Positions 20,805 to 31,577 of a stretch of DNA of 64,000 nucleotides are shown here, in pieces. How positions within the stretch are numbered: the stretch's first letter is position 1; the number at the start of each line of letters is the position of its first letter. The notes under the pieces were generated by a model. That model searched no databases and was not told where the DNA came from. It saw only the letters and a program-made list of their open reading frames with translations. The stretch is from an uncultured Actinomycetota bacterium. Its GTDB lineage: Bacteria; Actinomycetota; Actinomycetes; CAVWCF01. The stretch is taken from the NCBI GenBank assembly GCA_963753435.1, contig CAVWCF010000001.1, positions 864,001 to 928,000 of the forward strand, read 5' to 3'. A program made the position numbers and the translations under genes.

Positions 20805-20996
20805 GTGGGCGAAACCGAATCCGCGTACTGCGTTCACTGCGGCCGGACCGCAGACGCCGACCATGCGGCGTGTGCGCGTACCCCGGAGTTGGAGCCGCCG
20901 CGGTATTGCCCCCAGTGCGCCAGGCGCATGGTCGTGCAGGTGACGCCCAAGGGTTGGTCAGCTCGCTGCGTCGAACACGGTCAGCGGCACGGGTGA
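20805..20996 (+). CDS. bsaP: Biotin synthase auxiliary protein (Rv1590-like)
   Basis: CVHCG...EPPRYCPQCARRMVVQVTPKGWSARCVEHG matches the BsaP signature. Confidence 0.85.
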   Translation: MGETESAYCVHCGRTADADHAACARTPELEPPRYCPQCARRMVVQVTPKGWSARCVEHGQRHG

Positions 20997-22421: not shown

Positions 22422-23687
22422 CTAGTGAGAGCCGCTACGGCGCCGGTCCAGCACGCGGCCGAGAGTTCGCACCACGGCTGGGTCGTAGTCGAAGGCCATG
22501 CCCAGCCGTAGGGCTTCCAGGGCCTCCGCTTGCCGGGACTGCTCGTTGCTGTCACCGACGGCATCGTCGTATGCGTTCACGACCCGCACGATCCGGCTGG
22601 CGATGCTCAGGTGCGGATCGTCGGCCTCGTGTGGCCGGCGGTAAGGATCGGATTGGCGCTCGACGATGTCCGCCACTCGGTCCAGGACCTTCGTCTGGCG
22701 GATGACCTCGGCACCATCGCGAGCGATCGCCGCCTGCACGTCCGCGGACTTCCACGACGTGGCCCCGCCGTCGATCGGCTCATCGAGGGACAGCTGGCCG
22801 ATGTCGTGCAGCAGCGCGGCGTACTCCAGGTCCCGCAACTGTGCGTCCGAAAGGCCCATCTCGGTGCCCACCGCTACGGCCAGGTCAGCGACGCGATGCA
22901 GGTGTCCCGTCTCGGTGTATCCGCCCAACTCCGTAACTCGGGATAGCGACCGGATGGTCTGCAGGTAGGTCATTCGGATCGTGGCGAACCGGCGGAAGGA
23001 GAACTGCGCCAGTAGCAGCGGCGCCCCGAACACGGGCACGGCCCACAGCCCGGTCACCGGGGCAGCCAACGCCATGAGAACGCCGGTGATGCCAATGGCA
23101 ACACCCAACGCGCCGGTGGCGCGCAACTCCTCGACCACGGCCCGGGCGAACGGTGCGTGCGCGCGCTCGGCACGAACCGCGGCGGACAGCAGCGCGTCCA
23201 GTCCGCCGCCGATGGCAACGACCGTGGCCATGATCAGTGCTTTGGCCAGGGGTCCCGACGTAGCCAGCAGATCCTGGACCGAGTCGGAGCGGAACCAGAA
23301 GGCGACCGTCGCGATGACCACGAGGCGGCGCGCCAGCCCGTCGGCATCCGGGGCGCGGCCGGTGACGATGTGCGGCAGGACCCCGAGTGCGGTCGCGCCC
23401 GCGGCGACGGCGACCACCTGCCACGCACCATGGGTCGCCGGTGTGCCCGAAACCGACTCGGTCAATGCGTAGCCGAGTGCCGCAGCGGTCCCAAGTGGTG
23501 CGGCCTCTCGGCCATTGGGCAACCAGATTCGAATGACTTCGCCGACCAGAATCACCGCGCCGAACGCGATCGCGACGCGGGGCTGCACCAGACCGCCGGC
23601 CTCGAAGACCACGACGAAGGCAGCGATTGCCAGCGAACCGGCCAGGAGAATCACCAGCGCGGCAAGGCGCGTGGGTCCGCTGATCAT
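22422..23687 (-). CDS. Membrane-bound HD-domain protein with degenerate HD-GYP
   Basis: About 7-8 TM N-terminus; GH..RV and LLHDIG are present, but HHE and GYP are absent. Confidence 0.85.
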   Translation of the reverse strand: MISGPTRLAALVILLAGSLAIAAFVVVFEAGGLVQPRVAIAFGAVILVGEVIRIWLPNGREAAPLGTAAALGYALTESVSGTPATHGAWQVVAVAAGATALGVLPHIVTGRAPDADGLARRLVVIATVAFWFRSDSVQDLLATSGPLAKALIMATVVAIGGGLDALLSAAVRAERAHAPFARAVVEELRATGALGVAIGITGVLMALAAPVTGLWAVPVFGAPLLLAQFSFRRFATIRMTYLQTIRSLSRVTELGGYTETGHLHRVADLAVAVGTEMGLSDAQLRDLEYAALLHDIGQLSLDEPIDGGATSWKSADVQAAIARDGAEVIRQTKVLDRVADIVERQSDPYRRPHEADDPHLSIASRIVRVVNAYDDAVGDSNEQSRQAEALEALRLGMAFDYDPAVVRTLGRVLDRRRSGSH

Positions 23688-25033
23688 GAGCGACCCACCG
23701 CCACCGTCGGATCGTCGTGGTCGAGCCCGCCGGCGGCCGCCCTGGGTGCAGGTTGTCCGGTCCGCTCGGTCCAAGGTTCGCGCTCCAGGGCCAGCAGCAT
23801 GGCTTCGACCATGCGCGGGTCGAACTGGGAGCCGGAGCACCGACGAATCTCTTCCAGCGCTTCCTCGACGGATCGGGCGCCACGGTAGGACCGGGTCGAT
23901 GTCATCGAGTCAAATGCGTCCGCAACCGCGATGATCCGGGCGAACTCAGGGATGTCTTCGCCCCGCAGGCCCATCGGGTAGCCGCGGCCATCAAGCCGTT
24001 CGTGGTGATGCAGTACGCCGGACAGTGCCTCACCCAGGAACTCCAGGTCCGCGACCAGGTCCCGTCCCCGCACCGGGTGCAGCGTGATCGCGGCGAACTC
24101 CTCGTCCGTCAGCCGCCCGGTCTTCTGCAGGATCCGGGTGGGGACACCCAACTTGCCGACGTCGTGCAGGATCCCGGCGTAACGCAGCGCATCCAGCCGT
24201 GGACCGACCAGGCCGAGAACGCGGCCGATCATTACCGACCCTTTGGCGACGCGTTCGGAATGGCCCCGGGTGTATTCGTCCTTGGTCTCAACTGCGCGGA
24301 TCAGCGTTCGGATGGTGGCCTCGTAGGCCTCGCGTTCCCGGGCGTACTGGCCGATGGCCCACCGCGCGATCATCAGCGGCGCCAGCACGAGGACCACCGA
24401 GGTGGCGCCAATCCCGGACCCGAGCCAGAGCGCGGCGATCATCAATCCGAACACCGAGTATCCGAACATCGCCGGAGTCGTCTGTAGGAGATAGCCCCGT
24501 AGCAGGTCCCCAACGCGTGCACCTTGGGCAGCGGACAGAATCCCGATGAGCAGCAGGCTGGTCACCAGGCAGTAGACCGCGTTGGCAACGGCGAACGGCA
24601 CCAGGACGGATGGGAAGTCACCGGGTTCGAGCGATCCAACAGGCCCACCGAGCCACACGTATGCCCAGCCGGCCGCAAAAGCGCTCAGCGTCCAGTTGGC
24701 CGCGTTGAAGGCGCGCTTGAGGTTCAGACCGTGCCGCTCGGACGGTTCGTGACCCCGGACGAAGAGCCCCATGGCGCCCACCAGTGCCGCTGCGCCGGGG
24801 CCGTCAACCATGAACGCCGCACTCGCGACCGGAAGGGTCATCGTCGTGAATGTTCCCGACGAGGCCACCGATGTCGCGCGGAAACCCACCCGCTCCAGCA
24901 CCAGTACCAGCGCCAGGAGGAGGCCGGTGCCCTGCCAGTCTTCAACGAGAGTGAAGCTGACACCCACGGCGAGCAGCCCAAGACCAACGACAGCGCCCGC
25001 ATACATGCGGGCACGCATCGGCAGGTCGCGCAT
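23684..25033 (-). CDS. Membrane-bound HD-GYP c-di-GMP phosphodiesterase (MASE9-like N-terminus)
   Basis: TM domain with GP and KRAFNAAN; KDEYTRGHSERV, LHDVGK, HHHERLDGRGYP, ADAFDSMTSTRSYR. Confidence 0.93.
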   Translation of the reverse strand: MRDLPMRARMYAGAVVGLGLLAVGVSFTLVEDWQGTGLLLALVLVLERVGFRATSVASSGTFTTMTLPVASAAFMVDGPGAAALVGAMGLFVRGHEPSERHGLNLKRAFNAANWTLSAFAAGWAYVWLGGPVGSLEPGDFPSVLVPFAVANAVYCLVTSLLLIGILSAAQGARVGDLLRGYLLQTTPAMFGYSVFGLMIAALWLGSGIGATSVVLVLAPLMIARWAIGQYAREREAYEATIRTLIRAVETKDEYTRGHSERVAKGSVMIGRVLGLVGPRLDALRYAGILHDVGKLGVPTRILQKTGRLTDEEFAAITLHPVRGRDLVADLEFLGEALSGVLHHHERLDGRGYPMGLRGEDIPEFARIIAVADAFDSMTSTRSYRGARSVEEALEEIRRCSGSQFDPRMVEAMLLALEREPWTERTGQPAPRAAAGGLDHDDPTVAVGRS

Positions 25034-25093
25034 GCGCCCTCCACTGGGGAAGTTAGAGAGGGAACCGGGGACCGGCGGCGACACAAGTCACGG

Positions 25094-25153
25094 TCAGTGC
25101 CAGCCGTGGCCGTTGGTCATTAGAAAGCGCTCCAGCATGGACGAAATCGTCAT
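25094..25153 (-). CDS. Putative 19-aa peptide MTISSMLERFLMTNGHGWH
   Basis: Read by hand: ATG 25153 to TGA 25094. SD-like GGGGTGAT about 6 nt upstream; ends 60 nt before the HD-GYP ATG. Confidence 0.65.
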   Translation of the reverse strand: MTISSMLERFLMTNGHGWH

Positions 25154-25583
25154 GAGCGCATCACCCCAAGTCAGAAGTCATGGGAGTCCGCTACTACCCA
25201 TGCGCGATCCGCTCCGCTCGGTGATCGCCCGTCGGACGGGCTGTCGCCACAAGTGCGACAAGCGTGCCGCCGCCGGTCCCCGGTTCACTCTCTGCAGTTG
25301 TCGGGCGGGCACAGATGTGCCCAGGGCTGCCCCGCTGGCGGTGAGGCCCCCCTGCCGTGTCTTGTGTGACACAGGCGACAGAAGTGAATCGTGTGAATGG
25401 TGAGGGGTCAAGGGGGCAGGCACCTAGGACAGGTATCGAGTCGGTCACGGCCAGCCTCAGTCACCCATTCGGGCGAACCACGACACCCGCTAGCGGGATG
25501 CCGGTTTCGGAGGGTCGGCGATGGCTACGCTTGCCCCACACGGCCCGAACGGGGAATCGAGGGTCGTTGCCAACGGAGGAGCG

Positions 25584-25952
25584 ATGAGCAGCCGCGAACG
25601 GGCGCTCGGCGACGTGGTCGCCGGGTTGCTGGACGCGCGCCTGGACCCGGCCACCGACCGCTTCGACGCCGAGTTGGCGGCCGCCGAAGCCGATGGGCGG
25701 ATCGACGCCCAGACCGCCCGGTTGCTGCGCTGGTGGCAGCGTGAGTCGCTGCGCGGCCTCGTGGACCATGCGCGCCGCACCATTCCGGCCACGATCGTTG
25801 CCTTGGATCAGGCCAACACCGCAGCGCGCACCGGCAACGAAGAGTCGGCTGCAGCGTGGGCGCGGGCCGAGGAGCCCAGCCGCGCGCGGACGATAGACCT
25901 GGACCAACGCCGGCAGGCGTTCGTAGCCGGACTTACTGAGGCGGACGCATGA
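25584..25952 (+). CDS. Hypothetical protein
   Basis: SD GGAGGA before the ATG; ATGA-coupled to the next gene; LRWWQRES motif; family not recognised. Confidence 0.75.
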   Translation: MSSRERALGDVVAGLLDARLDPATDRFDAELAAAEADGRIDAQTARLLRWWQRESLRGLVDHARRTIPATIVALDQANTAARTGNEESAAAWARAEEPSRARTIDLDQRRQAFVAGLTEADA

Positions 25953-26620
25953 CGACCCTGCGATTGCTCCCCGAGTTGGAGCAGGACCTGCAACGAGTGC
26001 CCGGCGTTCAAGCTGCCAGCGTCGTGACGGGCCCGGATGCGGTGCCCGTGGAGATCCACGTCCTGGCGGCGCCGACCAGAGCCGCCAAGCAGATAGTGCG
26101 CGACATTCAGTCCTTGGCCCAGGCTCAACACGGCCTGGCTATTGACCACCGGATCGTCTCCGTCGTGCAACTGGACGTGGACGACAGCCCAGCGCCGGCA
26201 CCGGAGACGCCCAAGAACGGCCACCACAGCCTCGAACAGCAGGCGCCGCCGCGTCCGGCCATCGCATCGATCATGGTCCGCTCAGCCGGCCCGGAGGCCG
26301 AGGCGGTGGTCGTCCTCGCCGCTTCGGGCCTCACCTTTGAGGGACGAGCCACCGGGGCTTCCGGCCTGGGGCACCGATCCCGGCTGGTGGCCAGGGCGAC
26401 CCTGGACGCCCTGGGCGAACTACTGGGTCACTCCGTCGAAGTGGACAGTGCGGACATCGTCGATGCCGGTCCGCATCGGGTCGCGGTCACGGTGCTGACC
26501 ATCCTTGCCGCCCGCTCGGGGGAACAACTCGTTTCGGGATCGGCGGTGGTTCGCTCTGATGAGGCGGACGCGATCGCCCGCAGCGTCCTGGATGCCCTGA
26601 ACCGCCGCTTGGCCGACTAG
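25949..26620 (+). CDS. Conserved hypothetical two-domain protein
   Basis: EIHVLA...KQIVRDIQS...IDHRIVSVVQ, a Pro-rich linker, and a C-terminal alpha/beta domain ending ARSVLDALNRR; SD GAGG. Confidence 0.85.
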   Translation: MTTLRLLPELEQDLQRVPGVQAASVVTGPDAVPVEIHVLAAPTRAAKQIVRDIQSLAQAQHGLAIDHRIVSVVQLDVDDSPAPAPETPKNGHHSLEQQAPPRPAIASIMVRSAGPEAEAVVVLAASGLTFEGRATGASGLGHRSRLVARATLDALGELLGHSVEVDSADIVDAGPHRVAVTVLTILAARSGEQLVSGSAVVRSDEADAIARSVLDALNRRLAD

Positions 26621-26874
26621 TCGTCAGCCAAGCTCGGGTCCGTCAGCACCGGCCGGATGGCCTTCAATCCCCGACCGAGGAACGCTGACGGCGTGTTGTC
26701 TCTAATCACCTGAACCATCATCGCCTCGGTGATCGGCGTGTCCTCGCCGTACTTGTCCATGAGGATGCTGTTCAGCCCGTCGCGGGTGTTCCGGCGAAAC
26801 GGGAAGGGAGTAGCGCTGATGCTCTTGTCGTACACGGCCTTGGCATTCTCGGCCCACTTGAAATCCGGCATCAC
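26617..26874 (-). CDS. Small helical protein, PCP_red/DUF2621-like
   Basis: SD AAGGGAGG; pattern W..NAK......P.PFR......ITE.......TP. Family resemblance judged by eye. Confidence 0.7.
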   Translation of the reverse strand: MMPDFKWAENAKAVYDKSISATPFPFRRNTRDGLNSILMDKYGEDTPITEAMMVQVIRDNTPSAFLGRGLKAIRPVLTDPSLADD

Positions 26875-26952
26875 GGCCTCCCCTTCGCGCTGACTGTAGA
26901 AGCGCCCCGCGCCGGATCAAAGCACGGGGTCGCCATGGTGTGTTCGTGTTGC

Positions 26953-27729
26953 CTACGCCGCAAGCGTCACTTCCCGGCGGCTGGGGGGAAGGTTGAGCAG
27001 CCGGCGCCAGAGGAGCGCACCGAGCAGAACCGATACGAACACAACTAGCGCAAGCACCAACAGCGGCACGCTGCTGCCCTGCGCGCCGTTGCTGATCGCC
27101 CACACCAGGAACCAGAGGCCACTGGATGCGGAGATGGTGGTGAATCCGTGCAGCACCTGGGCACGAGTGCGCAGTAGCGCCGCAAAGAAGTACATCGTGG
27201 CCCCGGTGATGAGCAACTGCAGGAAGATCACCGGATCGCCGAAAGAGTTGAAGGCCAAGACGATCGCAGCCAGGTTGACCACCGACAGCGGTACGAAGTA
27301 CGGACCCTGGCGCAGGTAGAAGACGGGCAGCGCCACAACCGCCGCGACGGAGACGGCTACCACCCAAAGCTGGTCGCCGCCAATGGCCAGCGCGATGCAG
27401 GCTTGGCCGGCGGTAATCAGCCAGTAGAAGAGGAAATCGGCGAAGCCGTAGCCGTTGGTGCTGGCCGTCTCCTCAGTCAGGTACCAGTTGTCCATCGTGT
27501 TCTGGGCGGCCTCGAACGCCCCGCCGGCCGAGAGCAGGCAGGCGGCGGCGAAGAACAGGAAGGGGTTGTACGTCACTTCCTGCAGATAGGCCCAGTTCCA
27601 CGAGACGGCGGCGACGATGGCCAGGGGGACCAGCAACGCGTAGGCGTGCGCAAGCAACACCCACACGGCTTCACCGCCGCGGATGTGGACATCAGCCCAG
27701 ATCCGCTTTGTCGGTGTCATCGTCGCCAC
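26953..27729 (-). CDS. Hypothetical multi-pass membrane protein
   Basis: About 7-8 hydrophobic helices; SD AAAGG; co-oriented in an apparent three-gene operon. Confidence 0.8.
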   Translation of the reverse strand: MATMTPTKRIWADVHIRGGEAVWVLLAHAYALLVPLAIVAAVSWNWAYLQEVTYNPFLFFAAACLLSAGGAFEAAQNTMDNWYLTEETASTNGYGFADFLFYWLITAGQACIALAIGGDQLWVVAVSVAAVVALPVFYLRQGPYFVPLSVVNLAAIVLAFNSFGDPVIFLQLLITGATMYFFAALLRTRAQVLHGFTTISASSGLWFLVWAISNGAQGSSVPLLVLALVVFVSVLLGALLWRRLLNLPPSRREVTLAA

Positions 27730-27738
27730 CGCCTTTCG

Positions 27739-28041
27739 TCACTTCTCGCGATTTACCGTTTCCGCTGCCTGCTTCAGCGCGTCGGCGACCACGGCCGTTT
27801 CGGCCCCGATCGCATCGGCGATCTGCGTCGCGATGGACTCCACGGTGCCGTGGATGCCCTGGACAACGGCCTTGCTCGTGTCCCGCGCCGCCCCAGTCGC
27901 TTCGTCAGAAACGCCCATGCTCGACAGGACCGTCAACGGGATCTCCGCAGCAGCAAGGGTCGTGTTCTCGATCGCATCCCCGAAGTTGCGGAACGCGAGG
28001 AGGAAGAACCGGTCTTCACCGCTCTGCTTGGCCTGTGCCAT
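27739..28041 (-). CDS. Hypothetical amphipathic helical protein
   Basis: SD AGGAGGTG before ATG 28041; gapless similarity to 30399..30770. Confidence 0.8.
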   Translation of the reverse strand: MAQAKQSGEDRFFLLAFRNFGDAIENTTLAAAEIPLTVLSSMGVSDEATGAARDTSKAVVQGIHGTVESIATQIADAIGAETAVVADALKQAAETVNREK

Positions 28042-28089
28042 CTCGCACCTCCTGATCGTTCCGGGCGATCCGCTTGATCGACCGGGTCT

Positions 28090-28118
28090 TGTATACCGTC
28101 GCAGTGAACGCATGTCCA
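28090..28118 (-). promoter_or_regulatory. Putative sigma70-type promoter of the leftward island operon
   Basis: Minus strand TGGACA (28118-28113)-N17-TATACA (28095-28090). Confidence 0.55.
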
Positions 28119-28143
28119 CCATTTCAGCCTACGAACGTTCACT
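28103..28143. promoter_or_regulatory. Two 18-bp FabR/DesT-like operators
   Basis: AGTGAACGCATGTCCACC (28103-28120) and AGCCTACGAACGTTCACT (28126-28143). The outer arms CAGTGAACG/CGTTCACTG form a perfect 9-bp inverted repeat. Confidence 0.65.
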
Positions 28144-28314
28144 GAGTGTTCCTGCCCCGATGCTGGCCCCCGAGCACGGACCGCGGCACCGCCTTTGGTC
28201 CCGGGAGTGCGATGCCGGAGGACCCTTTGGTCCCGGCGACTTGTCGGTAAGGCTGACCCTGAGCCCGACGTCGGATTACCCTCGGCGCCCGGGTCAGCCA
28301 GGGGAGGCACAAGG

Positions 28315-29595
28315 ATGAAGACTGTTTCGGCCACTCAGACCGGTGGCGGTATCGACCAAGGCAGTGTTGACCAGGTCAGCGGGACCGGCATCAGCCGGAC
28401 CCCCATCTGGCCCGACTACTTCGCTCGCCACGGCCAGCCCGATGCGGCCAACTGGCAGTACCAGGGGTACCTCAGCGACACCGCGCGGGTCTGGCGGGCC
28501 TACTACAACCTGGTGCTGGGCCACCCGAAGGTCGCCTTCGTCGGCATGCGGCACTTCTACCAATCGCTGGTTTACCGGATCTCCAACGAGCACACCGGGG
28601 ATGCGCTCGCGCCGTTGATGACGTTCGTGACCCCGTTCGGCATGGTCGCGACCCCGTTCGCTTCCCTGCTCGCGGTGGCCACCGTCCCGCCCTTCCTCAA
28701 GCGGGTCAAGCACATGGAAATCCCGCCGCTGTTCCGCCCGTTCAACCGGCGCGGCTGGTCCAACTACAACATCATGCTCGTGACGATGTTCACGATGCAC
28801 AGCTACAAGCAGTACCGCATGGGCTGGAGCCCGGACCACGCGCTCAGGCACTCCTCCAAGGTGTTCTGGCATGACTTCTTCGAGACCCACCTGCCCGAGG
28901 GCCACCGCGCCACCAAGCAGTACGGCGTCATGAAGGACGGCGTGCTCAAGGGCGAGATCCCCGAAGACTCGTTCATCATCAAGCCCACCAAGGGTGGCGC
29001 CGGCCAGTACCTGCGCACCTGGGAATGGGACCCCACCGAGCGCCTCTACACGTGCACCGACTCCGAGCGCAGCCCCGAAGAGCCGGAGGTCTGCACGCCG
29101 GAAGAACTGCGCGAACACATCCTCGGCATGTACGTGAACGCCGTCATCGAGAAGTGCGAGCGCATGCGGTCGCCCTTCCCCATCAGCAGCTTCCGGGTGA
29201 TGACCCTGAACATCGACGGCGAAGCGGAGTTGATCGCCGCCGTGTTCCTGCCTGCGGACGAAGGCTCGAACTCCACCGCGTACTTCGACCTGGACACCCA
29301 CCTCATCAACTACGAGGACAGTTCCATCGGCAAGCCGATCCGGCCCCAGAGCGAGGGACCCTGGACCGGCATCGAGGTCCCCGAGTTGAACGATGTGATC
29401 GAGGCCTGCATCGCGCTGCACAACGAACTGCCCGCCCACGTCGAGGTGAGCTGGGACGTCATGCTGACCGAAGACGGTCCGGTGTACCTGGAAGGAAACA
29501 TCTTCCCGCCCGGCTGCGACTACAAGTTGACGATCTTCAAGAAGTGGGAGAACTTCAAGTACCTGAAGGATCGCCTGCTCGGCGCCTACCGCTGA
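28315..29595 (+). CDS. ATP-grasp domain protein (ATPgrasp_ST-like C-terminus)
   Basis: IIKPTKGGAGQ, SFRVMT, VSWDVMLTEDGPVYLEGN; SD GGGGAGG/AAGG. Confidence 0.8.
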   Translation: MKTVSATQTGGGIDQGSVDQVSGTGISRTPIWPDYFARHGQPDAANWQYQGYLSDTARVWRAYYNLVLGHPKVAFVGMRHFYQSLVYRISNEHTGDALAPLMTFVTPFGMVATPFASLLAVATVPPFLKRVKHMEIPPLFRPFNRRGWSNYNIMLVTMFTMHSYKQYRMGWSPDHALRHSSKVFWHDFFETHLPEGHRATKQYGVMKDGVLKGEIPEDSFIIKPTKGGAGQYLRTWEWDPTERLYTCTDSERSPEEPEVCTPEELREHILGMYVNAVIEKCERMRSPFPISSFRVMTLNIDGEAELIAAVFLPADEGSNSTAYFDLDTHLINYEDSSIGKPIRPQSEGPWTGIEVPELNDVIEACIALHNELPAHVEVSWDVMLTEDGPVYLEGNIFPPGCDYKLTIFKKWENFKYLKDRLLGAYR

Positions 29596-29640
29596 CGCAG
29601 GCCGTCGTAGCATCACGGCATCCCGACAGAGGAGGTCGCG

Positions 29641-30402
29641 GTGGCCAGTCGCGCCGAGCAGAAGGCTCGCACTCGAAACGCACTGATCCACTCCTGGCTC
29701 AGACTGATCGGGGACGGGGCCAACTTCGCCTCCGTGAGTCTTCGCGAGGTCGCCAAGACCGCCGGCGTTGTTCCGACTTCGTTCTACCGGCACTTCGGCG
29801 ACATGGACGAGCTTGGCCTGGCCGTGGTCGACCAACTCGGCAGTGACCTGCGCCGCCTCGGCCGATTGTCGAAGGACCCGGATACCTCCGTATCGGCGAG
29901 CGTGCAGCAGGGCGTCGAAGCGTTCGCGGAGTACGTCACGGAGAACGCGGACCTGGTTCGTTTCGTCAACCAGGCACGGACCGGGGGCAACTCACCGCTG
30001 CGCAAGGCGATCGACAATGAACTTGAGTTCTTCAGCGCCCGCATCGCCAGCGCCCTGGGCGACGTTCGCCCAGAGTTGGATACTGCCGCTCGCGATGTGG
30101 TCGCCGAGTTGGTCATCGCGGTCCTACTGGAGAGCACCCCGGCGATGCTTGAAGCCGACGCGGAGCAGTTGAGTGCAGCTCGTTCCGGCCTGGAGCAGAA
30201 GATTCACATCGTCCTGCTTGGGGCCGCCCAATTGGCCGAGGAATCACAACAACCCCAAGCGGGCAAGCGCGCCCCCACCAAAGCAACCGGGCCCCGGACC
30301 AGCAAGGCAACGAGCGCCAAGCGGGCAACCGCAGAACGGGCGGCCAAGAAGCCGACCAAGGCGGCCAAGAGCACCCGCAAACCCGCGGGCGGACCGGCAT
30401 GA
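29641..30402 (+). CDS. TetR-family regulator, FabR/DesT-like, with Lys/Ala-rich tail
   Basis: RAEQKARTR...FASVSLREVAKTAGVVPTSFYRHFGDMDELGL; SD GAGGAGG. Confidence 0.9.
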   Translation: MASRAEQKARTRNALIHSWLRLIGDGANFASVSLREVAKTAGVVPTSFYRHFGDMDELGLAVVDQLGSDLRRLGRLSKDPDTSVSASVQQGVEAFAEYVTENADLVRFVNQARTGGNSPLRKAIDNELEFFSARIASALGDVRPELDTAARDVVAELVIAVLLESTPAMLEADAEQLSAARSGLEQKIHIVLLGAAQLAEESQQPQAGKRAPTKATGPRTSKATSAKRATAERAAKKPTKAAKSTRKPAGGPA

Positions 30403-30770
30403 ACCTGGTCGAGCAGGTCGACGCCTACTGGGGACTGATCCACCGGTCCTTCGACAATGCCACCGAGGCGGTGGAACACGTCCACCAACGCTTCGCGGAG
30501 ATGTCCTTCGACGTCCTGCACGAGATCGGACTACCCAAGGACGTGACTGATCGGGCCAAGGCCAAGCACGGGCGCGTGATGCACACCCTCTACGACGGCG
30601 TCCGATTCACCAACGCCGAGATCGGCGACTTGGTAGTGCGGCAGTTCGATCAGATCAGCCGGTTCGCCAGCAACCTGAACGCCAGCCTGCTGCCGAGCCC
30701 GACAAACGTTCCCGATCAGCCGCGCACCGGACGCGGTGGCGTCCCCGGGGAGACATCCACGTCCAAGTAG
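30399..30770 (+). CDS. Hypothetical amphipathic helical protein
   Basis: ATGA-coupled to the TetR gene; apparent paralog of 27739..28041. Confidence 0.78.
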   Translation: MNLVEQVDAYWGLIHRSFDNATEAVEHVHQRFAEMSFDVLHEIGLPKDVTDRAKAKHGRVMHTLYDGVRFTNAEIGDLVVRQFDQISRFASNLNASLLPSPTNVPDQPRTGRGGVPGETSTSK

Positions 30771-31561
30771 GTCCGCTGCGCGTCGGCCACCTGCGGCGGG
30801 TCGTCCGGACCGAACACCGCGTCGAACATCATGTTCGCCCCGGTCCAGCCGAGCACCGAAGCCAGCCCCGCCCCAGCCGGTGAGTGGTAGTCGAGCCCCT
30901 TGTAGGCCTTCTTCATGACCGCCAGGCGCCGCGCCTCAACCCGAGCCGCATCGGTATGCGCCACCGGGTCGGCGTCGCGGTAGACGTTCGTCCACTCCGC
31001 TGTGACGTCGAGCAGGAACTCCTTGCCGGCTGGGATGGCAGCCGGGTCGAGATAGAGCAAGACGCCGACGCTCGACCCGACCTGCAACGTGAAGTAGGGA
31101 CTAGGCGGCGGTTCGGGGCCCAGCCGATACGACGTCAGCGTCGGCCAATGACGCGCGACCACGTCCGCGTACCCGAGCATGTGCCGCCCGTAGTAGGTCT
31201 GGTCGAACGCAACATCTCCGACCGGAATGAAGTCCGCACCGATGATGCAGACCTCCGGCATCTCGAAGATCACTGTCGTCAACGCCGGAAAGTCGTAGCC
31301 CGTGCCCGGCCAGGCGTGGGCCAGGTGTTCGTTCAACATGCCGCTGCGATGGAACCGATACAACGTCGACCGCTCTATCTTGGCGGCGGTGTAGGAGTCC
31401 ACGTCCACCGCTCCGGCCTCGTTGTCCGGGCCGGCCTCGAACCGGTTATGGGCGATCAGAGCCGGAACCGGAAGTGGCTGCCATTGCAGGGCGTCTCCCA
31501 GGATCTGCGCCTGGGCGGCCCGCAGACCGAGGGTGTCTTCGCGCTCGATCTCGTAGGTCAT
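30716..31561 (-). CDS. Ferredoxin-dependent bilin reductase / red chlorophyll catabolite reductase-like protein
   Basis: WPGTGYDFP, GADFIPVGDVAFDQTYYGRH, PPPSPYF, W..VYRDA, D..SPA...LASVLG pattern. The ORF is solid; the fold is inferred by eye. Confidence 0.6.
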   Translation of the reverse strand: MTYEIEREDTLGLRAAQAQILGDALQWQPLPVPALIAHNRFEAGPDNEAGAVDVDSYTAAKIERSTLYRFHRSGMLNEHLAHAWPGTGYDFPALTTVIFEMPEVCIIGADFIPVGDVAFDQTYYGRHMLGYADVVARHWPTLTSYRLGPEPPPSPYFTLQVGSSVGVLLYLDPAAIPAGKEFLLDVTAEWTNVYRDADPVAHTDAARVEARRLAVMKKAYKGLDYHSPAGAGLASVLGWTGANMMFDAVFGPDDPPQVADAQRTYLDVDVSPGTPPRPVRG

Positions 31562-31577
31562 GACCAAACTATGTCGC

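Follow-up and report, generated by a model that had tools for sequence, protein, structure and literature searches.

A conserved small open reading frame inside a folded leader RNA precedes MASE9-type HD-GYP receptor genes and may encode a ligand of the receptor

In Streptomyces venezuelae, hdgA and hdgB (vnz24090/vnz24095) were described as a gene pair for a six-transmembrane (6TM) HD-GYP protein and a 6TM protein with a degenerate HD-GYP domain (PMC6205966). The MASE9 domain was named with its ligand unknown and with TM1467 as an example of a MASE9-HD-GYP protein, and the activity of the S. venezuelae HdgA is given in the same work as a personal communication (10.1101/2021.11.05.467447). According to the passages on these proteins in the two sources, the ligand of HdgA/MASE9 is probably bound within the membrane and the activating signals are probably missing; neither a peptide or RNA upstream of the genes nor a partner gene figures in those passages (PMC6205966, 10.1101/2021.11.05.467447). 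In the 5TMR sensor kinases, the S-component fold contains a ligand site, and neither MASE nor HD-GYP occurs in the main text that describes it (PMC11109136). For most c-di-GMP enzymes with a membrane sensor, it is unknown what the sensor responds to, and MASE9 has been named as an example.

We analyzed a 64,000-nucleotide stretch of the genome of an uncultured Actinomycetota bacterium (hereafter the window), which carries a gene pair with the same tandem layout of an intact and a degenerate 6TM-HD-GYP protein, preceded by a small open reading frame (ORF).

22422..23687, minus strand: HdgB ortholog, with a membrane domain homologous to that of HdgA (probability 95%) and a degenerate HD-GYP domain
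23684..25033, minus strand: HdgA ortholog, with a MASE9-type membrane domain of predicted S-component fold and an intact HD-GYP domain
25094..25153, minus strand: small ORF of 19 codons, with a predicted amphipathic N-terminal helix, a Gly-rich linker, and a penultimate Trp
25160..25167, minus strand: Shine-Dalgarno (SD) sequence of the small ORF, GGGGTGAT, 6 nt before the ATG and predicted to pair with 25220-25225 in this genome

The pair is located between a biotinyl carrier gene and, past an inserted block, rsrA and a gene for a SigH/SigR-type sigma factor. The block (26617-31567) contains six genes, encoding an ATP-grasp protein (PF14397), a FabR-like TetR regulator, and four proteins without a family, between a gene for a 223-aa protein and rsrA; it looks like a lineage-specific insertion, as many relatives have a gap of approximately 1-1.5 kb there. 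A small gene matching BsaP (biotin synthase auxiliary protein, NF052237) was also observed at 20805-20996, downstream of a biotin operon.

HdgA of the window retains the HD-GYP motifs (H290-D291, H343-H344-E345, G351-Y352-P353, and R381-S-Y-R384; PF13487, E 1e-39) and is a predicted c-di-GMP phosphodiesterase. The original prediction had linked the receptor to MASE9-type sensors, which was supported by its relatives, as 17 of 32 aligned orthologs matched PF20972 at E<=0.1 (best 1.1e-8), whereas the window protein itself gave no match. When the structure model of the membrane domain (pLDDT 91) was compared with 48,161 chains, S-components occupied the top 14 places with Z scores of 8.9-12.7, just under the caution line of 13 for helical bundles; the best was 4hzu_S (Z 12.7, rmsd 3.6, 158 aligned), and the best Foldseek E was 0.08. 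The model thus suggests that the MASE9 domain of HdgA has the fold of an ECF S-component.

The small ORF, its SD sequence, and its spacing of 60 nt to the HD-GYP gene had been proposed from the window alone, and all were borne out by translation and coordinates: the ORF was translated into the expected 19 residues followed by TGA, and its stop lies 60 nt ahead of the HD-GYP gene, which starts at 25033. Of the 251 genomes of the class, 115 carried an HdgA ortholog. The locus set comprised 115 loci from 114 genomes and 28 families, namely 110 of the 115 ortholog-bearing genomes, four other genomes, and a second copy in G144; fragments and contig-edge matches (G011, G107, G180, G212, and G237) were omitted. 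Two unpublished genomes were counted, G032 (L013) among these loci and G304 (L156) among 30 loci of other classes, and no conclusion hinges on either.

A fixed detector (8-45 codons, SD score >=5, and Trp in the last two residues) was applied in a blind scan. It fired in 92 of the 115 orthologous upstream regions, in 3 of the 115 opposite strands, and in 11 of 300 upstream regions taken from this genome as controls, although the examined genomes are related and the counts hence overstate independence. These frequencies indicate that the ORF is not a chance occurrence, and the expectation that a small ORF would be conserved upstream of orthologous HD-GYP genes was confirmed. Manual curation raised the count to 102 of 115 loci and 27 of 28 families. 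The family f28 was excluded from this tally by rule, its four candidates having been set aside beforehand as alternative-frame ORFs in or beside rsrA; outside f28, the misses are G145 and a frameshifted locus in G209. In 30 ORFs of 21 codons, the entropy at codon positions 1, 2, and 3 was 0.77, 0.59, and 1.16, respectively, with the third position being the most variable, and pN/pS was 0.5. By these signatures, the small ORF is a real, conserved, and unannotated gene. About half of the 30 MASE9 loci from other classes of the phylum are, as judged by eye, likewise preceded by an ORF of this kind, with a basic start, a hydrophobic core, and a tail mostly bearing Trp, Tyr, or Arg.

Among 51 aligned peptides, Met1 and the near-terminal Trp alone were invariant. 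The proposed family motif G-x-x-W(H) survived as W-x only: of 107 peptides, 50 had Gly three residues before Trp and 11 ended in His. The proposed short hydrophobic helix was not supported, since the window peptide is amphipathic with a best 11-residue Kyte-Doolittle mean of 0.76, which is too weak for a transmembrane helix. Window-type peptides averaged 1.19 against 2.5-2.6 in other lineages, and the N-terminal helix pattern is kept at the protein level. In non-actinomycete peptides, a basic N-terminus is combined with a hydrophobic core, and 20 of 35 bear Trp in the last two places. None of 18 relatives of the peptide reached an NCBIfam curated cut-off, and a Pfam scan of 50 relatives gave no fitting family, with single unrelated weak matches in three. 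A match to a Phr N-terminus stayed below the cut-off (E 0.026, 15 bits against 25).

Several loci carry additional copies. A second Trp-ending ORF was present in seven loci (six of 9 codons and one of 28), and two identical peptide genes each were present in L139, L146, and L150. In G276 (L146:930-1040), two identical genes follow a degenerate RNA that keeps the tandem repeat described below and has lost the loop repeat. The Trp core occurs twice within one ORF in L005:2911-2994 (minus strand) and L122:3407-3565 (minus strand), resembling multi-core pheromone precursors. The variation in copy number suggests a diffusible product.

Trp is known to be prenylated or cross-linked in ComX and cyclophane RiPPs. 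With its leader-plus-core layout, the repeated cores of L005 and L122, and the invariant Trp, the ORF could likewise be the precursor of a post-translationally modified peptide whose enzyme is encoded elsewhere. However, the Trp is not universal, the 9-codon versions are leaderless, and the scan of 15 neighboring genes revealed no exporter, peptidase, or modifying enzyme; the peptide modification considered in the original prediction is thus unsupported, and we regard a modified precursor as very unlikely.

The sequences around the ORF were compared, and a leader with a common order of elements (a tandem AGCGG, a hairpin with a bulged A and AGCGG in the loop, and the SD) was found in 72 of the 115 loci.

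25383..25411, minus strand: TTGAC-N18-TTCACT, a promoter-like element that 58 of 69 RNA-bearing loci share and that recurs in 4 of 39 others and in 0 of 108 opposite strands
25220..25225, minus strand: predicted anti-SD strand, with cognate pairing better than non-cognate in just 50 of 72 relatives
25209..25218, minus strand: tandem AGCGG repeat and candidate protein-binding site, in which 9 of 10 columns do not vary among 62 sequences
25177..25203, minus strand: covarying hairpin, with an invariant bulged A at 25178 and a third AGCGG in the loop at 25188-25192

Compensatory changes were observed in six of the seven hairpin pairs. In an extended 14-pair structure, both-side changes filled 81 cells against 24.6 in shuffles, the lowest pairs being weak, and the pairing was 86% against at most 46% for slid controls. 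Judged by covariation, the ORF sits inside a conserved folded RNA; the original prediction had found the ORF and missed this structure around it. One regular-expression match, in L058, was removed as a false RNA. Rfam covariance models, including those of c-di-GMP riboswitches, gave no match at the gathering score in 17 loci, and in the window just four weak matches far under that score. A likeness to the hammerhead ribozyme and the GEMM riboswitch, noticed by eye, was dropped with no Rfam match.

The messages of hok and aapA1 pair end to end around a small ORF whose SD is paired. From this resemblance, the RNA and the ORF might be a type I toxin-like element, with a stable folded message, a concealed SD, and a small membrane peptide, merely sitting before hdgA. 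However, each genome contains a single copy, which a MASE9-type gene invariably follows, none of 120 viral pattern hits was linked, and the peptide is weakly hydrophobic and survives loss of the RNA. We consider this explanation extremely improbable.

The possible function of the hairpin as a switch was examined by folding. In 35 non-actinomycete leaders, the unpaired probability of the ribosome-binding site was 0.31 against 0.44 in shuffled sequences (more paired in 29 of 35), and it opened to 0.46 when the hairpin was held (up in 26 and down in 1), although folding constraints tend to free sites anyway. The same test was negative for the 72 actinomycete leaders including that of the window (0.42 native, 0.45 shuffled, and 0.42 held), and an earlier version in which AGCGG alone was kept single-stranded showed no effect. 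The hairpin switch would thus work on paper for the 35 non-actinomycete leaders and not for the 72 actinomycete ones.

The hairpin, SD, and ORF are further enclosed by a long-range stem.

25290..25302, minus strand: box like the 5' arms of the 16S and 23S rRNA processing stems of this genome
25263..25293, minus strand: 5' arm of the stem (24 + 6 bp) enclosing the hairpin, the SD, and the small ORF
25055..25085, minus strand: 3' arm of the stem, ending 21 nt before the hdgA start and leaving the hdgA SD free

The stem of 24 + 6 bp in the window compares with a median of 28 bp in 70 loci, and the folding z score was -5.97 for the 280-nt leader. Cognate arms paired with -55 kcal/mol against -39 kcal/mol with partners from other families, and the cognate partner was the best of all in 47 of 70 loci. 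The rRNA-like box was also found before 5S in this genome. Of 4.3 million positions scored with a matrix built from the boxes of 69 relatives alone, those in the 23S and 16S stems of this genome ranked 5th and 8th, respectively. The part in common with rRNA leaders is conserved. The boxA consensus of E. coli and B. subtilis has a U-rich core (PMC13753749, PMC5725501, in the parts that define it); the box of this genome is without the U-run of known boxA sequences, which relatives keep in part, with T at its two positions in just 25 and 30 of 69 sites, and the box sits at the foot of the stem, compared with a central position in the rRNA stems. Staggered cuts in rRNA stems have been reported for an actinobacterium, in the portion of the report dealing with them (PMC3848588). 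RNase III is encoded in five of the five genomes checked, and the stem provides at least two turns of double-stranded RNA, from which cleavage by this enzyme is predicted. A second strong box match, without an AGCGG core, is located outside the window (G000:C1 near 741951, minus strand) and is followed by an ORF with a signal-peptide-like start.

Eight metatranscriptomes contained 5-15% of the sequence words, and four of them, examined as contigs, showed scattered low cover. RNA-library contigs, which show neither level nor ends, covered 25092-25282 and 25020-25170. The former, from a close relative (run X3, depth 11, one study), corresponds almost exactly to the inside of the long stem and is a lead at most.

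The position of the ORF in this leader raises the alternative that the peptide is inert and that the translating ribosome, perhaps stalled at Trp, opens or closes the long stem in cis and thereby sets hdgAB expression. The ORF is within a structured leader, the Trp is invariant among the 51 aligned peptides, and in 53 of 70 loci the 3' arm starts <=13 nt from the small-ORF stop, within the footprint of a terminating ribosome. However, in 61 of 70 loci at least 15 nt separate the stem from the start of hdgA, leaving the hdgA SD uncovered, and the N-terminal helix pattern is conserved as protein. The features of a Trp attenuation leader such as TrpL or TnaC were not found: the downstream gene encodes a MASE9-type HD-GYP protein, and the terminal Trp is absent in 15 of the 35 non-actinomycete peptides. 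Furthermore, the peptide is kept in f3, f14, f41, f44, f46, and f53, six families without the RNA and the 223-aa gene, indicating that the product matters and not merely the act of translation. A cis-acting leader peptide therefore appears decidedly unlikely.

Two divergent genes lie on the other side of the leader.

25521..25952, plus strand: hypothetical gene of 143 aa from the first ATG (alternative ATG at 25584), with no family found
25949..26620, plus strand: gene for the 223-aa protein, with a BolA/CDF-CTD-like N-domain and a C-domain of the LeuA regulatory fold; candidate RNA reader

The 143-aa gene is beside most actinomycete copies of the RNA. For the 223-aa gene, 98 loci were counted after omission of 17 with short upstream DNA and no match: both the RNA and the gene were present in 65, neither in 32, and the RNA only in 1, and the genome of the latter carries the gene on another contig. 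The gene was not found in any of the 21 hdgA-positive, RNA-negative genomes searched. A covariance model of the RNA detected a single copy in each of 15 gene-positive genomes, the majority of them part of its training set, and none in 15 gene-negative and 9 hdgA-negative genomes; in other classes it found 7 of 16 and missed four variants seen by pattern.

A search anchored on the protein yielded 62 of 80 loci with the RNA, the peptide, and the MASE9 gene; the remainder were mostly contig-end cuts or motif variants, and five long-flanked loci were without the link. When metagenomes were searched with the RNA, 111 of 118 matches were re-matched, of which 26 had a MASE9-type/HD-GYP gene downstream and 39 a 223-aa homolog upstream (36 co-oriented). 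Both partners were present in 21 of the 111 and neither in 67, representing chance matches or short contigs, and all one-sided loci had <=376 nt on the missing side. Two Bacillota records, Natranaerobius thermophilus and one titled Subdoligranulum variabile, keep the order of 223-aa homolog, RNA, small ORF, and MASE9-type HD-GYP gene. These distributions suggest that the 223-aa gene tracks the RNA and not the peptide, which the original prediction had missed, and its co-occurrence with the leader agrees with the proposal that 22422-26620 is one module. A DUF5317 gene follows the Natranaerobius HD-GYP gene; it was not found in this genome, was present in 11 of the 23 searched, and was rejected as a fixed part of the module.

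Some copies depart from this arrangement. In G144 (L246 / L091 / L092), the divergent pair and an hdgB-like gene are on one contig, and another contig bears two hdgA copies with peptides, one alone with the RNA. For the 223-aa homologs of L239-L241, neither a MASE9 gene nor the RNA pattern lies within 6 kb; two of these records bear the title Burkholderiales yet resemble the Acidimicrobiia record, and the title of L205 is Bifidobacterium breve. These titles may be wrong. A distant paralog of the 223-aa protein (G000:C5 near 178549, E 2e-13) and those of relatives (L247-L251, 1e-17 to 1e-25) are not accompanied by the RNA, and their surroundings are unrelated.

The 223-aa protein matched no Pfam or NCBIfam family, a PDB sequence search with its profile gave nothing useful, and the Atlas contained unnamed clusters alone for it and nothing for the 143-aa protein. 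Its structure model (pLDDT 88.5) has two domains, of which the N-domain resembles BolA and the C-terminal domains of CDF proteins and the C-domain resembles the LeuA/CMS regulatory fold. The C-domain matched LeuA (3f6g, Z 9.4, rmsd 3.0, 109 aligned; Foldseek E 1e-5), and the LeuA profile PF08502 was matched by just 2 of 37 members (best E 6e-4). The nearest chains of the N-domain were CDF C-terminal domains, BolA, and ligase subdomains (Z 7-8.7). Its topology fits the alpha-beta-beta-alpha-alpha-beta order of a type II KH domain, with no GxxG in the alignment, and we take the BolA/CDF-type folds to be KH-like. Double-stranded RNA-binding proteins were weaker structural matches, and many of the invariant residues are basic. 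The model thus suggests folds seen in RNA-binding proteins; these folds occur too in the tails of metal transporters, in acyl-CoA ligases, and in domains that bind amino acids. The 223-aa protein likely binds the AGCGG hairpin, and the RNA and the protein are likely a new RNA-protein regulatory pair. CsrA (PF02599) was rejected as the reader: it was present in three of five genomes, and was not found in the genome of the window (G000, 98% complete) or in G003 (100%). In the literature searched, with subscription journals largely outside, no description of the peptide, the RNA, or the 223-aa protein was found. An RNA without an Rfam family and an unnamed protein family appear and vanish together from actinomycetes to Bacillota.

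The relation between the peptide and the receptor was examined in f28, in which the ORF was absent in 11 of 11 genomes. F109, N110, N158, Y192, R224, and Y237 of HdgA are replaced in this family, which retains 8 of 18 conserved membrane columns compared with 82 of 92 catalytic columns. In nine of ten other families, 16-18 of 18-21 membrane columns persist; the tenth, f18, keeps 11 of 19. f28 is the only family without the ORF, its loss coinciding with that of membrane and linker residues in one event; it is probably the Streptomyces lineage, from which the peptide, the RNA, and the 223-aa gene have been lost and whose membrane domain is altered. G145 has no ORF and yet keeps the membrane residues. 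In HdgA of the window, residue 158 (24560-24562) is Thr, whereas Asn is found in 98 of 101 peptide-bearing orthologs; this Thr and the window peptide, two residues shorter than the commonest length, are possibly a matched change. Co-folding of the 35-residue peptide of a relative (L009) with its own MASE9 domain gave an uninformative score of 0.01.

The co-loss in f28 would fit equally well if the peptide were a fixed accessory subunit of the MASE9 domain, an extra helix for folding, dimerization, or basal activity that carries no signal. The basic N-terminus and hydrophobic core (mean 2.5-2.6) of the non-actinomycete peptides and the absence of processing and export genes nearby are consistent with such a subunit. 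In contrast, the 9-codon versions and tandem Trp cores cannot form membrane helices, the window-type peptide is amphipathic, and the duplicated identical genes together with a dedicated RNA suggest control of dose. We judge the subunit explanation to be unlikely.

Our best reading, which we hold with evenly balanced confidence, is that the peptide is the ligand of the HdgA sensor and that the RNA gates its production. The peptide likely reaches the membrane, and its Trp-bearing tail likely sits in the S-component-like pocket of the HdgA MASE9 domain, possibly in an HdgA/HdgB pair, where it would set the c-di-GMP phosphodiesterase activity. The amount of the peptide is likely gated by the RNA in which the ORF lies, and the 223-aa protein likely controls the peptide through the RNA by binding the AGCGG hairpin. 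RNase III may cut the peptide message from a longer transcript at the long stem with the rRNA-like box, and this excision is proposed to supply much peptide per receptor. The ORF with its coding signature, the covariation of the RNA, its co-occurrence with the 223-aa gene, the folds predicted for the proteins, and the joint loss in f28 were observed, and translation, export or insertion, binding, the direction of the effect, protein-RNA binding, and cleavage are inferred from them.

The duplicated genes, second ORFs, repeated cores, S-component fold, and f28 co-loss count for the peptide as a ligand, and G145, the single-event loss in f28, Thr158, and the lack of an adjacent export or processing gene count against it. 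The hydrophobicity of the window-type peptides, too weak for a signal anchor, and the lack of an exporter among the 15 neighboring genes also count against the proposed route of the peptide to the pocket. The negative switch test in actinomycetes, the box without a U-run, and the non-RNA uses of the 223-aa folds count against the mechanism. The module itself is real and conserved across phyla, and its mechanism is predicted. A wider proposal, possible but doubtful, is a multi-phylum system of a new kind with four parts, in which a dedicated RNA-binding protein with an amino-acid-sensor-like domain would read the AGCGG switch, the rRNA-processing machinery would excise a stable mini-message, the micropeptide would be a self-made signal for a c-di-GMP-degrading receptor of S-component fold, and the Streptomyces HdgA would be a relic without its ligand.

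The module offers a testable ligand, a predicted pocket, and mutable residues for MASE9. It may also explain why the S. venezuelae HdgA/HdgB mutants have no developmental phenotype, because the probable Streptomyces lineage has lost the peptide and the conserved membrane residues. Cultured carriers are available in Natranaerobius thermophilus (whole module) and a Nonomuraea gerenzanensis record (receptor).

Among the known systems, the 5TMR receptors share with HdgA the predicted fold, an extra N-terminal helix, and a cytoplasmic signaling domain, and they differ in that their output is a kinase and that their known ligands are small molecules (PMC11109136). Small membrane proteins tune the membrane sensor PhoQ: MgrB and SafA are likewise encoded by genes of <50 codons and linked to a membrane signaling enzyme, whereas the window-type peptide is amphipathic, has relatives of 9 codons, and has its own conserved RNA. 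CsrA, ANTAR, HutP, and TRAP switches likewise use a short purine repeat in a hairpin loop near a ribosome-binding site, whereas the RNA here has no Rfam family and its candidate reader is a single-target protein without a name. The long stem and the rRNA-like box on its 5' arm are shared with boxA-bearing rRNA leader stems, whereas the stem here encloses a peptide gene instead of rRNA. ComS/XIP, Phr, AgrD, and ComX are peptide pheromones with a leader and an aromatic C-terminal core, and their tiny precursor genes likewise lie beside that of the receptor. The peptide described here shares with them a variable tail at a fixed Trp, duplicated genes, and repeated cores, and it differs in matching no family, in having no adjacent processing gene, and in having a c-di-GMP enzyme as the predicted receptor.
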